Assembly (NCBI RefSeq): GCF_006345805.1
Contig: NC_043000.1
Span: 90,458,001-90,522,000, forward strand
Reading direction: 5' to 3'
DNA from: Octopus sinensis
Taxonomy: Eukaryota
DNA length: 64,000 nt
The notes below the pieces were generated by a model, which saw only the letters and a list, made by a program, of their open reading frames with translations, searched no databases and had not been told where the DNA came from. Shown here piece by piece: positions 14,800 to 46,439 of this stretch. Within the stretch, counting starts at the first letter, position 1; each line of letters starts with the position of its first letter. The translations under genes were made by a program, and so were the position numbers.

Positions 14800-15441
14800 T
14801 AAGTAGCAAGGGCATGCGTTTGCAATCCAGGAACAGGACATATCAACCAAGTACCTGATGCACAAAAGGGATTGAGATGCAGGAAAAACAGAAAACTGTG
14901 ACAACCGATGCAGACTTTGTGAAGTTATCACTGAAGACATCACCCACATCATATGCAGTTGTCCGAAATAGTAAACACGGTATTATCTACCGATGAGACA
15001 TGATGTTGCCAGGATACTGCATAAGGAGATCCGCTGGAAGGGTAACATTAAGACCAAAGAAATAAAAATCCACAGTATGGTGGAAGCCATAGCTACTCAT
15101 AATATAAAGGAGTACTGACAAAATCTCCCAGTGGAAAAACATCAATAAAATATAAAATGTGACAACCGATGCATACTTTGTGGAGTTCATACTGAAGATA
15201 TCACGCACATCATAAGCAGTTGTCCGAAAATGTCATCACGATGAGACATAATGTTGTAGCCCATGATGTAGCTAGGACAATTATTGGGATCCTGGGATAT
15301 GTAACACACTGTTTAAATACCAATCTTGAGAAATTAGGCTTCTCAAAAGCAGAAAGGAGAAAGCTAATTCGAGGACTACAGATCCAGTCCATCACTGGAA
15401 CTGTAAAAATCTGTAAAATTTTCCAGAAGTTTATCATTTAA
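14800..15441 (+). mobile_element. R4/Dong-like LINE fragments: duplicated CCHC knuckle plus C-terminus of the REL endonuclease domain
   Basis: AFAIQEQDISTKY..CRLCEVITEDITHIICSCPK..MRHDVA at 14815-15010, a second knuckle copy at 15158-15232, then IIGILGYVTHCL..LQIQSITGTVKICKIFQKF. Confidence 0.8.
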
Positions 15442-15466
15442 ATATATATGAACATGTCTAGATATA

Positions 15467-16721
15467 GTTCTATATTTAAGAGACCTATAGTAAATCGTAG
15501 AGGTTCAGCATGTCATCCACTGAGCCGCTTCCTTGTGGATATAATCAGTCCATTAGCAGGAAAGTCAACATCGAAATGTTGACCTTCTGTGTAGAAACTA
15601 CCTACTTCAGTATGGACACTGATATATATCGACAAGAGGAGGGTTTAGCTATGGGTTCGCCATTATCACCAGTAATAGCCAATATATACATGGAATACTT
15701 TGAAAATTTGGCTTTAGGATCAACACCACTAAAACCAACACTATGAATACGATATGTTGATGACACCTTTATACTCTGGCCCCACCAGGAAGATGTCCAA
15801 GTGCTGTTAGATCATGTGAACTCAATAAAGCCATCCATACAGTTCACAATGGAAAAAAGAAAAAGACAATCAGCTGGCATTCCTAGACGTATTAATAACA
15901 CGCAACAAGTATGGATTCAGGACATTCGTATACCGCAAGCCGATCTTTACTGGAAGATACCTCAACTTCAATTCCCACCATCCATACAGTGTAAAAAGAG
16001 GGATTGCTCAGTGCCTAAGAAACACCGTGCAAAGAATATAAGTAGCGATCGTGATACACACCACAAAGAAATGATCAAGCTTAATAACGATCTGTTAAGT
16101 AATAACTACCCCCAAACTATACTATCCGCTCCAATTAAGAAGAAGAGAGAGGATGAGGCCAATAAAATTTCCACAGTCTGTCTACCCTGTGTGAAAGGCC
16201 TCTCCGAAAAGATACAAAAGATATGCGGCCCATATGACATCAGGATAGTATTCAAGAGTAATACAACACTTCCCAAATGTCTCCTTCGATTAAAACCACC
16301 AATAGAAGAGAATATGACCAAAGACTGCGTGTACTCCATCGCATGCAACTGTGTTAGGTTATAGAAAGGCGAAACATGCCGCCCCCTCAAAATAAGGGTA
16401 GACGAACTTCGCAAATCTGTGACATGAGGATATATTGATAAATCGTGTATAGCTGATCATATATGGAAAAATGGAGACCACGTCCCCCTGTGGGATGAAG
16501 TTAAAATAATAGAGAACACCACTGGAAAATAAGAAAACTAAAAGAAGCAGCACATATGCTAGGACACAACAACCTCTTAAGCAGACCGAGTGCAGATATG
16601 AGCAGCATATGGGAACCGGTATTAAGGAAGGATAGGAAAATATTAGATTTATAAGCCCTAAAATTCACTCATAATTGTTCACGGGCATATGGCGTAGAGC
16701 GCGGGGTACTAACCCCAAGAT
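15467..16721 (+). mobile_element. Penelope-like retroelement (RT + GIY-YIG endonuclease), 5'-truncated and decayed
   Basis: RPIVNRRGS, TYFS..YRQEEGLAMGSPLSPVIANIYMEYFE, RYVDDTF, IQFTMEK, AFLDV, VYRKP..TGRYLNFNSHHP, and GIY-YIG-like VYSIACNC...KGETCRPLKIRV. Confidence 0.92.
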
Positions 16722-17182
16722 GTCTTAAAAATCGTTTCAGAGGCCTTAGTCTCGGGAACATCCATAACTAGAAACTGAAGTTGGAGGTAAGCAAGTGCGT
16801 GCTCCTCGTAGAAAATCCAGCTCCAAAAAAAAAAAAAAAAGCCTCATGATAGCAAAGGAGAGTGGGCATCAGCTAGCCAGCTCAAACGTTGGAGTGGGCT
16901 GCACTTGCCTACCTCGGTTGCTATGGTATTGAGGTAGATCCGCCCGCCCCCGTTAACGGGGACAAACCCCGGATTTAAAACCCTGGATGATGATGATTAT
17001 CATTGTTACTATTATTTATATTATCATTGTTCTTGTTGCTGCTGTAGTTGTATTCTAATACATTATAAAGTGATTTGGAGACTTTGTTCTAGTTTGTGTT
17101 TTCATTTGTTCTAAGGAACAAACACAATCGAAAACGTATTTATTTATCTAGCCTTCCGTCTGTCAATCAACCAATCAATGAG

Positions 17183-43655: not shown

Positions 43656-44430
43656 TTTACTTTGGCACACGACATAAGATTTTGGTGGAAGGGGCTATTC
43701 GATTATATTGACTCCAGTGTTCAAGTGATAATTATTTTACCCATCCCGAAAAGATGAAAGATAAAGACGAACTTGGCAAATAAAGTATAAGCATCACCCT
43801 GAGGCGGCTGTAACTGAGCGAGAAAATGTAACGATTTTTTCTACATAACTTTATTTGCTTTTGCAAATGAACAATCTGGTGCGTTTAGCTTAATGGCCTT
43901 TCAATGTATTTAGTGAATTTCTTTGCTCTAGGTTTCAGGAAGGCACTCAACAGGAAATGGAAACAAAATTGAAAAAAATTTTCATTATAATAATGATGGT
44001 GGTGATGATGATGATGATAATGATTTCTTACATAACAGAAGGTATCAAATTTTGGGGAGCCACTTGACTACTTTGACCTCTGCATTTAAATTGTCTTTAT
44101 GTTATCAAGTCGGGAAGAATGAAATGCAAAAGTCGACTACGGTGGGATATCAGAACATAAGAGTTGTAGCTTAAGCCAAGCATTTTGTCTGACGCTTTAA
44201 CGATTCTTCCAATCCACAGGCTTTTGCTAATCTAAATAATCCTTTCTACTATAGGCATGTTGTCTGAAATTTTGTGAGAGGACGGCTAGTTGATTACTAC
44301 ATCGACCCTAGTTCTCGACTGTTACTTATTTTATCGACCCTAAGAGGATGAAAGGAAAAGTCGACCTCGGCGGAACCCAAACTCAGAACGTAAAGGCGGC
44401 GTGTTAACGTGTCTGCCTGCTTGCCGCCTA
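43655..44430 (-). mobile_element. Three diverged SINE-A copies
   Basis: Core GATGAAAG..AAAGTCGACCTCGGCGGAA..AACTCAGAAC. Confidence 0.7.
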
Positions 44431-44823
44431 TTTGCTGATCTAAACAATGATAAGGACGATGACTTCCCACTGTCAGCTCGAACATTGTCATCTACAGTAG
44501 CATCAAGGAAGACGCTACGCGGTCACTCTACACCTAAAAATAACAACCAAATCTCTCTCAAATAATGCCTTTAACAGAAGAAATACTAAAAATGTGACTC
44601 TATTCATGATGTGTTTTCGAGTACTCCGAAAACGTAATTTTTGATATGTAAAACGATAAAGTCACGCCTGGAAGGCCTTTGATCACAATTTTGTTTGATT
44701 ATGGTCCCCTTGGGGGTTAAACAACAACATCAACATTGTTCTATATTTAAGTGATGAGAAATTATGTGCATTATTTACATTATTTACATTCGACGGATAT
44801 TTGTCCTCATCTTTTTTGTTGTT

Positions 44824-44869
44824 ACCACAACGTTTCGGCTGATATACCCTCCAGCCTTCTTCAGGTGTC
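44824..44869 (-). ncRNA. Minimal type-I hammerhead ribozyme motif (family 1)
   Basis: GACAC-CUGAAGA-A-GGCUG-10nt-CAGCC-GAAA-CG-UU-GUGGU; one mismatch in stem I. Confidence 0.7.
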
Positions 44870-45158
44870 TTGGGGAAATTTCGGACCTGGATTCTCATTC
44901 CTAGGGTATTTTTCGATATAATAATAATAATAATAATAATAATTATTATTATTGTTATTATTATTATTGTTATTATTATTATTGTTATTATTATTATTGT
45001 TGAGGCCACTGCTTGGCATCGTCCTCGGAATCTTGGGCTTAGTAGACCGCACTCTTAACCCAAAGATTCCGATTTCGATTTCAAACAACAACAACAACAA
45101 CAACAACAATATCGAAAAATACCTTAGGAATGAGAACCCAGGTTCGAAATTTCCCCAG

Positions 45159-45204
45159 GACACCTGAAGAAGGCTGGAGGGTATATCAGCCGAAACGTTG
45201 TGTT
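45159..45204 (+). ncRNA. Minimal type-I hammerhead ribozyme motif (family 1)
   Basis: GACAC-CUGAAGA-A-GGCUG-GAGGGUAUAU-CAGCC-GAAA-CG-UU-GUGUU: canonical CUGANGA/GAAA/UH core with paired stems I and II. Confidence 0.8.
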
Positions 45205-46439
45205 AACAAGATGAGGGCAAATAACCGTCGAATGTAAATAATGTAAATAATGAACACCAACATCATAATCATTTCTAACAATTACCGAAACTCCATCCAA
45301 TTTTGAGACAAAGGTGCAATCGACCACAATACTTGGTCATTACCGAACCCTTAAGGATGAAATTTAAAGTTGACTTCTAGTTGGATCTAAACTCAGAACT
45401 AAAGAGATTTAACAAAGTACCACAAGTCCGACACTTTAACAATTTTACAATCTTGAATACAATAGTAATATTAACAATTTTCCTACAGGTACAAGGTCAA
45501 AAATTATACGCAAAGAGAAAAGGTCGATCATATTGATCCCGGTATTTGTGTGGTAGTTTATTTTATTGACCAAATAAGGACGAAATGCGAAGATGAACCC
45601 TATGGGTTTCGAACTCAGAACACGTTGTTCAGACTAGTGCTCTATCAATTGTATCATGTACTACTCTTAATATGATGGTAATAAAAAATCTTAGCCGTCA
45701 CTCGCAAGAGCGTAAGTCTTAGTATAGTAACTTGTACCACTTTTGCGCTAATTGTTTTAGATATCTTTGTAGTTGAGGGCAGGTATAGACACCCTCTTAA
45801 TCATTTCATTCTTGACTCAAAGGGACACGAGTATATTATAGCTGGAGGAAGATTGAAAGCTATATCAGCACGTAATTATTTTCAGCTGAGTAAACAAGGG
45901 TAACACGAAATGAAGAGCCTTGTTCAAGGACACAAAGTGCAATCCGGTCCTAGAATTGAATCTATGACCTTGCGATCACGAGCTCAACTGCTTAATCTCT
46001 ACACCACGCACCTTCACATACGAGTATGACGGTATTAAGAAAAATAATAATTATTATCATAACCAACACAACCTTCCTCTCCATAATAACAACAATAATA
46101 ACGCTTAATGCAAATAGAAATTTATTTATTTATTTATTTGTATTTTCTATTCACTACTGCACTCTGCGTCTTGGTCGGAGTATTCATCGAATTTTCGAGA
46201 TCGCTGATTTACACAGAGGCTGTGAACTACATCCGTATAGACGGAACTTCTTTTTTTACGACAAACCCCCAACCATCCTTGCCTCTCTCCATAAAAAACA
46301 AAACCAAAAACATCAACAACTATAAATTAACAAAAAAACTCCTTAAACATTTATATACACCAAATAGCAAAACAAAAAAAAACTCTGCCTAAACCAAATG
46401 TGATGTTATGGCGGTATGTGTGAAGGACAGCGAGATGTT

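Follow-up and report, generated by a model that had tools for sequence, protein, structure and literature searches.

PAc of Anolis carolinensis and Penelope of D. virilis are Penelope-like elements (PLEs) in which a reverse transcriptase (RT) is followed by a GIY-YIG-type endonuclease (EN), the pseudo-LTR includes the start of the open reading frame (ORF), the tail is one-sided, and copies are 5'-truncated with an inverted partner; in both, a hammerhead overlaps the first codons (PMC11167929, PMC2377424). According to the accessible text on PAc, its ORF starts at the hammerhead and holds the tail inside this start, and its protein needs the first 172 bases of the ORF, with priming occurring internally at the tail (PMC11167929). 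An inverted truncated partner together with a one-sided tail of 30-40 bp is typical of such elements (PMC8557442), and the only Penelope promoter tested, that of D. virilis, is TATA-less, with initiator and DPE motifs like those of Drosophila LINE promoters (PMC2377424). The layout and overlapping hammerhead of PAc and Penelope have their counterparts, as judged from domain order and alignment, at the locus described here.

Small-RNA-derived promoters and hammerheads have also been described in other repeats. The schistosome repeats Sm-alpha and Sj-alpha carry a tRNA-related polymerase III promoter followed by a hammerhead, with the promoter near the 3' end of the cleaved units, hence tandems are needed (PMC6765202, PMC2770079). 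The TRIMp3 elements Helenus, Ajax and Cassandra hold a small-RNA-derived promoter in their terminal repeat, which has been proposed to arise by SINE insertion (PMC10886601). In animal non-LTR retrozymes, the repeats carry type I hammerheads and are either derived from PLE pseudo-LTRs or mobilised by them (PMC7229834, 10.64898/2026.07.22.740005), and the minimal form of the type I hammerhead needs a dimer (PMC4209133). Octopus repeats with tRNA-derived heads are likewise known, namely the SINEs OK, OR1 and OR2 (Ohshima and Okada 1994, as cited in PMC4758252 and PMC4824008). The present locus resembles each of these in part, through a tRNA-like head, a candidate promoter within a terminal repeat, or a predicted type I hammerhead.

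Two insertions were analysed within a window of 64,000 nucleotides (64 kb) from Octopus sinensis, which is the whole stretch of DNA under study: a decayed RT/GIY-YIG copy, hereafter the relic, and a two-armed insertion at 44738-45252, hereafter the module. Both hold parts of a tRNA-like head (Table 1). Our best explanation, to which we assign a probability of roughly 0.55, is that a tRNA-like head captured in the pseudo-LTR would drive polymerase III transcription of the element. The architecture beneath this reading, in which RT-EN, head and module belong to one element, is regarded as highly probable in itself.

Table 1. Features of the relic, the module and their flanks within the 64 kb window
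Feature	Coordinates	Strand	Evidence or remark
3' end of older, unrelated high-copy repeat (LINE-like ORF end and UTR), host of the insertion	15271..15465	+	Open frame ends at 15441
Putative inverted end of element tail, adjoining 5'-truncated RT	15467..15483	-	14/14 (18/20) identical to module terminus 44735-44754
Decayed Penelope/Poseidon-type RT and GIY-YIG-type ORF	15481..16654	+	Stop TAA 16652-16654; 5'-truncated, several frameshifts and stops
Spacer of 28 bases, stop codon to head	16655..16682	+	Common to other copies (loose ends behind 16670)
5' half of tRNA-like head (A box, anticodon-arm region)	16683..16721	+	21/25 to module head; loose ends behind 16670, 16697 and 16721
Unrelated low-copy sequence in place of the remaining pseudo-LTR in the relic copy	16722..16985	+	RNA reads, DNA depth
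Possible target-site duplication, left copy (partner 45253-45270)	44720..44737	+	14/18 identical; low complexity
Tail of ~31 bases, left arm only	44738..44768	-	Arm alignment and ends
Putative ORF start of the element itself, with a frame open across hammerhead and tail	44738..44898	-	ATG at 44898; 19/46 to P0008
Minimal type I hammerhead motif, left arm	44824..44869	-	Core, 6-pair helix II, palindromic helix III region
(AAT)n-type microsatellite separating head from ORF start	44918..45002	-	Sequence
tRNA-like head, left arm, from D loop to 3' end, with decayed B box	45000..45062	-	21/25 to 16697-16721; 23/30 to RNA loose end behind 16721
3' part of head, right arm	45056..45082	+	19/30 to RNA loose end behind 16721; ~7-base overlap with left arm at inversion point
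(AAC)n microsatellite, right arm	45084..45109	+	Sequence
ORF start, right arm, without tail	45130..45252	+	ATG at 45130; frame shifted by 7-base deletion
Minimal type I hammerhead motif, right arm	45159..45204	+	Predicted cut behind 45199, codon 24 of ORF

Alignment of the relic with tblastn matched residues 126-156 and 221-578 of protein P0002 at 59-77% identity, colinear through the C-terminal domain. Pfam searches returned an RVT_1 match (E 7.9e-9) and no GIY-YIG match in the relic itself, and its relatives P0097 and P0092 carried PF01541 or a GIY-YIG name. A PLE-type RT followed by a C-terminal GIY-YIG in one ORF, the arrangement of EN+ Penelope-like elements, is the composition of the relic, and its proposed assignment to the Penelope/Poseidon clade is based on this domain order and on the PAc-like layout. 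Approximately 64 codons were absent from the relic at 15573, and loose ends before this position supplied the missing RT part in other copies. For DNA contigs and for RNA reads alike, depth over the relic climbed steeply towards the 3' end, which is the pattern that 5' truncation predicts. By its sequence the relic is a 5'-truncated, internally deleted copy of a Penelope/Poseidon-type RT-GIY-YIG element; no target duplication was found around it.

Public sequencing runs, comprising DNA from organisms A, B and C and RNA from organism C, were aligned on 15400-16800 of the window. The preliminary description had proposed a tRNA-like segment directly downstream of the GIY-YIG region, and the identity that it reported between 16697-16721 and the reverse complement of 45030-45054 (21/25) was confirmed; among 630 window tiles of this 25-mer comparison, only the segment's own tile reached 21/25, an overlapping neighbour reached 19/25, and all others were at or below 17/25. 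Its A box also stood, with the position of the box (TGGCGTAG) corrected to 16690-16697, and it must be added that 8 bases were deleted behind 16697 and that the whole B box was gone from the relic. Continuation of other RT copies into the segment was likewise borne out, as they entered the head in 4/4 runs, and the outcome that would have refuted the description, other copies without the segment, did not occur for the head. Loose ends behind 16670 passed the spacer into the head, ending TGGCGTAGTG, in 90, 100 and 77 contigs and 244 reads (agreement 0.71-0.83), and a further ~380 RNA reads aligned through 16695, relative to a depth of 644 at 16669. In the organism C RNA run, among the 24 loose-end rows listed out of 2262, 204 reads behind 16697 carried the 8 bases absent from the relic copy, and 161 reads behind 16721 ran into GAGTTCAATTCC, a canonical B box, for which the best match in the window was the module head (23/30). 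As the reads departing at 16721 enter the B box and match the module head, the head belongs to the family and it is the relic copy that was cut at this point.

The sequence beyond the cut was followed by 7 RNA reads at 16761-62, as opposed to the 161 departing at 16721, and DNA depth over 16763-16800, the last bin covered, fell to 170-454. This segment is repeat-like on the forward strand, with an A run and an ATG/ATT microsatellite at its end, and its first 80 bases were low-copy in the runs.

The three loose-end strings were numbered by eye as tRNAs. On this numbering the spacing is standard from the A box through an anticodon-type loop of 7 bases and a variable region of 5 bases to the T loop; box positions were kept and several stem pairs were broken. 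By this spacing the head possesses A and B boxes as in a tRNA. A motif of this spacing with a free anticodon retrieved 34 viral-contig loci, 31 of which were tRNA genes of mixed type, a result that is partly circular in that the motif includes that of the T loop. Scored against these 31 tRNAs, a set drawn from viral contigs and not from the host, the head gave its best scores with Met and Ile, not Arg; a likeness to eukaryotic tRNA-Arg(ACG) is conceivable. ARAGORN detected no tRNA in the head fragments of the window. The head is likely that of a SINE captured into the pseudo-LTR, whereby a simple tRNA-derived SINE with an AAT tail would have inserted into the UTR of a master element, the route put forward for TRIMp3 (PMC10886601).

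The module was found to be an inverted pair of arms, 90% identical over 155 bases and overlapping by ~7 bases inside the head, with each arm reading head, microsatellite and hammerhead. An inverted partner and a one-sided tail of the 30-40 bp type were thus seen here, and 5' truncation in the depth over the relic, as in Penelope-like elements. The possible target-site duplication at its flanks has a level of identity (14/18) that was reached at 40 of 63,922 window positions. Both arms hold a hammerhead core, a 6-pair helix II with an extra 5' base and a palindromic helix III region, and were the only two descriptor matches in 64 kb. In the right arm, helix I (5 pairs) and helix II (6 pairs) appeared in the minimum free energy fold, and the palindrome duplex was estimated at -4.1 kcal/mol. 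The pseudo-LTR is hence predicted to contain a type I hammerhead ribozyme of the minimal, dimer-requiring form. Local Rfam scans of the window's fragments detected neither hammerhead nor tRNA, and Rfam on the whole window was dominated by microsatellite matches among the 150 of 336 rows listed. Collections of metagenomes, prokaryote genomes and viruses contained no match to the hammerhead core pattern. Nine metagenome loci, at 30-55% identity over the best segment, contained no tRNA (9/9) and no useful Rfam match in the six scanned (6/6), and are too distant to inform.

Several further observations were made around the module. At the inversion point (45000-45082) the D-loop and anticodon-arm regions of the head are self-complementary, sharing ~7 bases in a hairpin of about -30 kcal/mol, a possible trace of the strand folding back while it was reverse-transcribed. 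A second B-box-like word (GGTTCGAAATTTCC) occurs on the forward strand of the right arm at 45141-45154, in the first ORF codons and just 5' of the hammerhead. Decayed copies of another SINE-like repeat with a T-loop-like word, distinct from the head, lie at 44270-44400, 45490-45620, 45850-45990, 25624 and 25843.

The left-arm frame from the ATG at 44898 matched residues 15-59 of the full-length protein P0008 (847 residues) at 19/46 positions with a pairwise E of 5e-4, the only match under E 1 among 127 proteins; part of this likeness arises because both encode a hammerhead in frame. In a sister family (P0155-P0304) the same hammerhead-coding start was observed, often as short tandem repeats of ~42 codons (for example in P0155, P0156 and P0167), like ORF-start-only retrozyme arrays. 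Two peptides of this sister family join the module to element proteins: in P0194 a single peptide passes from RT residues (17/18 to P0002) straight into the module, and in P0165 the module is joined to antisense endonuclease. The module had been regarded as an element apart from an autonomous partner, a view that was not upheld, since its frame is open through hammerhead and tail and homologous to the N-terminus of a full-length relative. It appears instead to be the element's own pseudo-LTR, consisting of UTR and ORF start as in Anolis PAc, rather than a separate non-coding partner.

An exhaustive search with the module peptide returned 359 matches, and the 150 listed were short spurious gene calls, 128 of them with sister-family marks. 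None of the 150 listed peptides matched the head (0/150), and the upstream peptides of the sister family were, by eye, unlike it, which suggests a different UTR in that family; capture of the head is for this reason likely to be lineage-specific. The search yielded no full-length family protein, only a host gene model, P0154 (LOC115224785 isoform X2) of Octopus sinensis. This model matches 44898-44790 on the reverse strand and starts with the first 36 codons of the element ORF (32/36 identical to the module peptide), then continues into unrelated host sequence, which suggests that the pseudo-LTR has been taken up as its first exon. By eye, P0154 is a cysteine-rich membrane protein.

We infer an internal promoter in the pseudo-LTR from the intact boxes of the head and its position, and the element likely brings its own RNA polymerase III switch; given the architecture, use of the head as a promoter is judged fairly probable. 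Polymerase III would start at the head and run through the T4-free module into flanking DNA or the ORF of the next tandem unit. As has been demonstrated for Anolis PAc, the element protein would attach to the ORF start and begin priming internally in the RNA, at the tail. The resulting insertions would be 5'-truncated with an inverted partner and one-sided tail, which would explain both the 14-mer at 15467 and the palindrome at 44738-45252. Each truncated copy that kept the head would then be a ready-made SINE-like template.

No T4 run was present in either arm of the module or in the 1241 bases of the relic sense strand, and 1/204 window tiles was free of T4. The deficit in the relic had a P of 0.05 against a mononucleotide null, 0.20 against a dinucleotide null, 0.11 with the relic's own codons and 0.001 with window composition. 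It carries little weight because the composition controls (P 0.05-0.20) leave little signal; the neighbouring LINE-like stretch was also T4-poor (1 in 652). The module of the window is ORF-less but truncated inside the head, and the aligned reference contained only 39 head bases; no place with many molecule starts was found in the RNA run over that reference.

A recently captured SINE would keep its boxes even if they were not used. It is possible, if clearly less probable than the reading preferred here, that the same architecture carries the head as a passenger, a SINE remnant fixed in the master copy, with polymerase II transcription from the pseudo-LTR or from host promoters. The LINE-like, TATA-less promoter of D. 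virilis Penelope (PMC2377424) would fit this alternative, as would Kojima's argument that elements transcribed by polymerase III need autonomous partners that rely on polymerase II (PMC10886601). It also draws on the RNA reads, which fell on both strands about equally, on the host gene model, which starts at the module ATG and suggests a spliced polymerase II RNA through the module, and on the sister-family peptides, whose suggested different UTR would mean that the clade as a whole can do without the head. As polymerase III transcripts carry no cap, translation of the ORF from them would be unexplained. Against a passenger, the majority sequence keeps its boxes whilst the stems are broken, the sense strand lacks a T4 run, and most of the non-coding DNA is occupied by the head, so that a further promoter would have little space.

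The preliminary description had claimed a layout of RT-EN, tRNA-like head, microsatellite, hammerhead and tail. The first part of this order, from the ORF end through the head to the B box, was observed directly in other copies (4/4 runs for the head); the join of head to hammerhead rests on one two-armed insertion, on the homology of the module to the N-terminus of P0008 and on the fused peptide P0194. ORF, head and module would thereby form one unit, in which the pseudo-LTR would consist of 28 bases, a head of ~74 bases, the AAT repeat, ~20 bases and the first 50-odd ORF codons with hammerhead and tail. The head would sit in sense ~180 bases upstream of the ATG. Beyond the 28 bases, the head, the repeat and the ~20 bases, the element contains little non-coding DNA.

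It could be argued that the head and AAT repeat constitute a free SINE that became placed independently behind the ORF and before the hammerhead module of another Penelope family, such that the two loci belong to different elements. The complete chain is not covered by any single record, there being no contig or read from ORF to hammerhead among the four runs, the contigs of which are short, and P0008, whose N-terminal likeness is in part due to the in-frame hammerhead, is only 43-74% identical to the relic. This alternative is nonetheless very improbable, as the RNA reads that extend beyond the ORF end almost all pass into the head at one common position, both arms hold head, repeat and hammerhead in one order, the tail end is found at the RT junction, RT and module are fused in P0194, and a tile search did not find the head elsewhere in the 64 kb.

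The tail end at the RT junction was the remaining element of the preliminary description, which had held the relic to be bracketed by both ends of the module. The identity of 15467-15480 to 44738-44751 (14/14) was verified, and extended to 18/20 over 15464-15483. It was the only complex 14-mer of the module present elsewhere in the window; shuffled modules gave 0.25 such matches per window, and taken alone the 14-mer is weak and unremarkable evidence. The chance of a match of this type within 30 bases is ~5e-4 by an i.i.d. estimate. What makes it credible is its position between the break of the host repeat at 15465 (4/4 runs) and the start of the RT frame at 15481, together with its being the extreme end of the module, hence the 14-mer is best regarded, from this arrangement, as the inverted tail of the element. 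Least likely of all is that it is a chance match beside a real head link, with the relic not bracketed, since although 152/1000 shuffles gave at least one match somewhere in the window and the four runs gave no loose-end row specific to the 15467 junction, the match exactly fills the gap described, begins at the terminal base of the module, and has no other 18/20 counterpart to its 20-mer in the window.

The repeat that hosts the insertion, possibly of the Dong/R4 type, had no Pfam match and its peptide no informative Atlas match. Its depth was very high, with loose ends behind 15465 in 199, 207 and 192 contigs and 99 reads across the four runs. Assignment of the 14-mer to the UTR of this repeat was rejected, as other copies of the repeat diverge at 15465; its continuation past this point was not found elsewhere in the window (best 16/22). 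Upstream of the ORF end of the host repeat, a segment of ~110 bases was seen by eye to be duplicated on the forward strand within 14850-15270 (near 14898 and 15159).

A stronger version of the polymerase III reading is doubtful at present. On this version, an autonomous retrotransposon that encodes its own protein would have a single promoter, a polymerase III promoter captured from a tRNA-derived source; tandems would be read through a T4-free ORF, and each solo pseudo-LTR would be a self-transcribing SINE moved by the same enzyme. If true, the element would be the link that is lacking between Penelope elements and hammerhead SINEs of the Sm-alpha kind, and many unclassified octopus SINEs could derive from it. 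Very few cases inform on the transcription of Penelope-like elements, and the hammerhead repeats with tRNA heads described to date have been only non-coding, with no parent demonstrated. A head in the terminal repeat of a coding element would show concretely how a Penelope element could give rise to a SINE, and provides a small candidate promoter in an abundant, transcribed family that is present in runs from three organisms. There may also be consequences for the annotation of SINE repeats in octopus, where 893/900 recently active SINE families of O. vulgaris are unclassified (PMC13282606).

In the literature searched, as far as its accessible text extends, no report was found of a coding Penelope element whose pseudo-LTR contains a tRNA-like head; the layout could already be on record in Repbase, Dfam, subscription papers or supplements, which lie outside this scope. 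The name 'Chuyu', reportedly used for PLE-linked SINEs, was not found in the same texts. What would be new here is a tRNA-like head within the terminal repeat of a coding Penelope element, the closest precedents (Sm-alpha and TRIMp3) being non-coding.

Comparison with the described systems supports this distinction. PAc and Penelope share the coding layout, but here a tRNA-like head bearing A and B boxes makes up most of the UTR together with a microsatellite, whereas the accessible description of PAc does not contain the word 'tRNA' (PMC11167929) and the Penelope promoter is LINE-like with a DPE. Octopus OR1 or OR2 is listed as a CORE-SINE (PMC4758252, PMC4824008), whereas the head here passes directly into a microsatellite with no room for a CORE domain; these were compared by description only, and a shared head is possible. 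Retrozymes consist of tandem non-coding units, each with a type I hammerhead, and the module is not of this kind, as it is an inverted pair on opposite strands that includes a coding start; the accessible text of the 2026 retrozyme preprint mentions neither 'tRNA' nor 'promoter' (10.64898/2026.07.22.740005). The TRIMp3 elements belong to the LTR class and are non-autonomous, and their autonomous partners are expected not to share the repeat (PMC10886601), the opposite of the present case. Sm-alpha and Sj-alpha are non-coding with a canonical hammerhead, and no autonomous element with the same head has been reported for them in the accessible accounts (PMC6765202, PMC2770079), whereas the head described here would lie within the repeat of the coding element itself.
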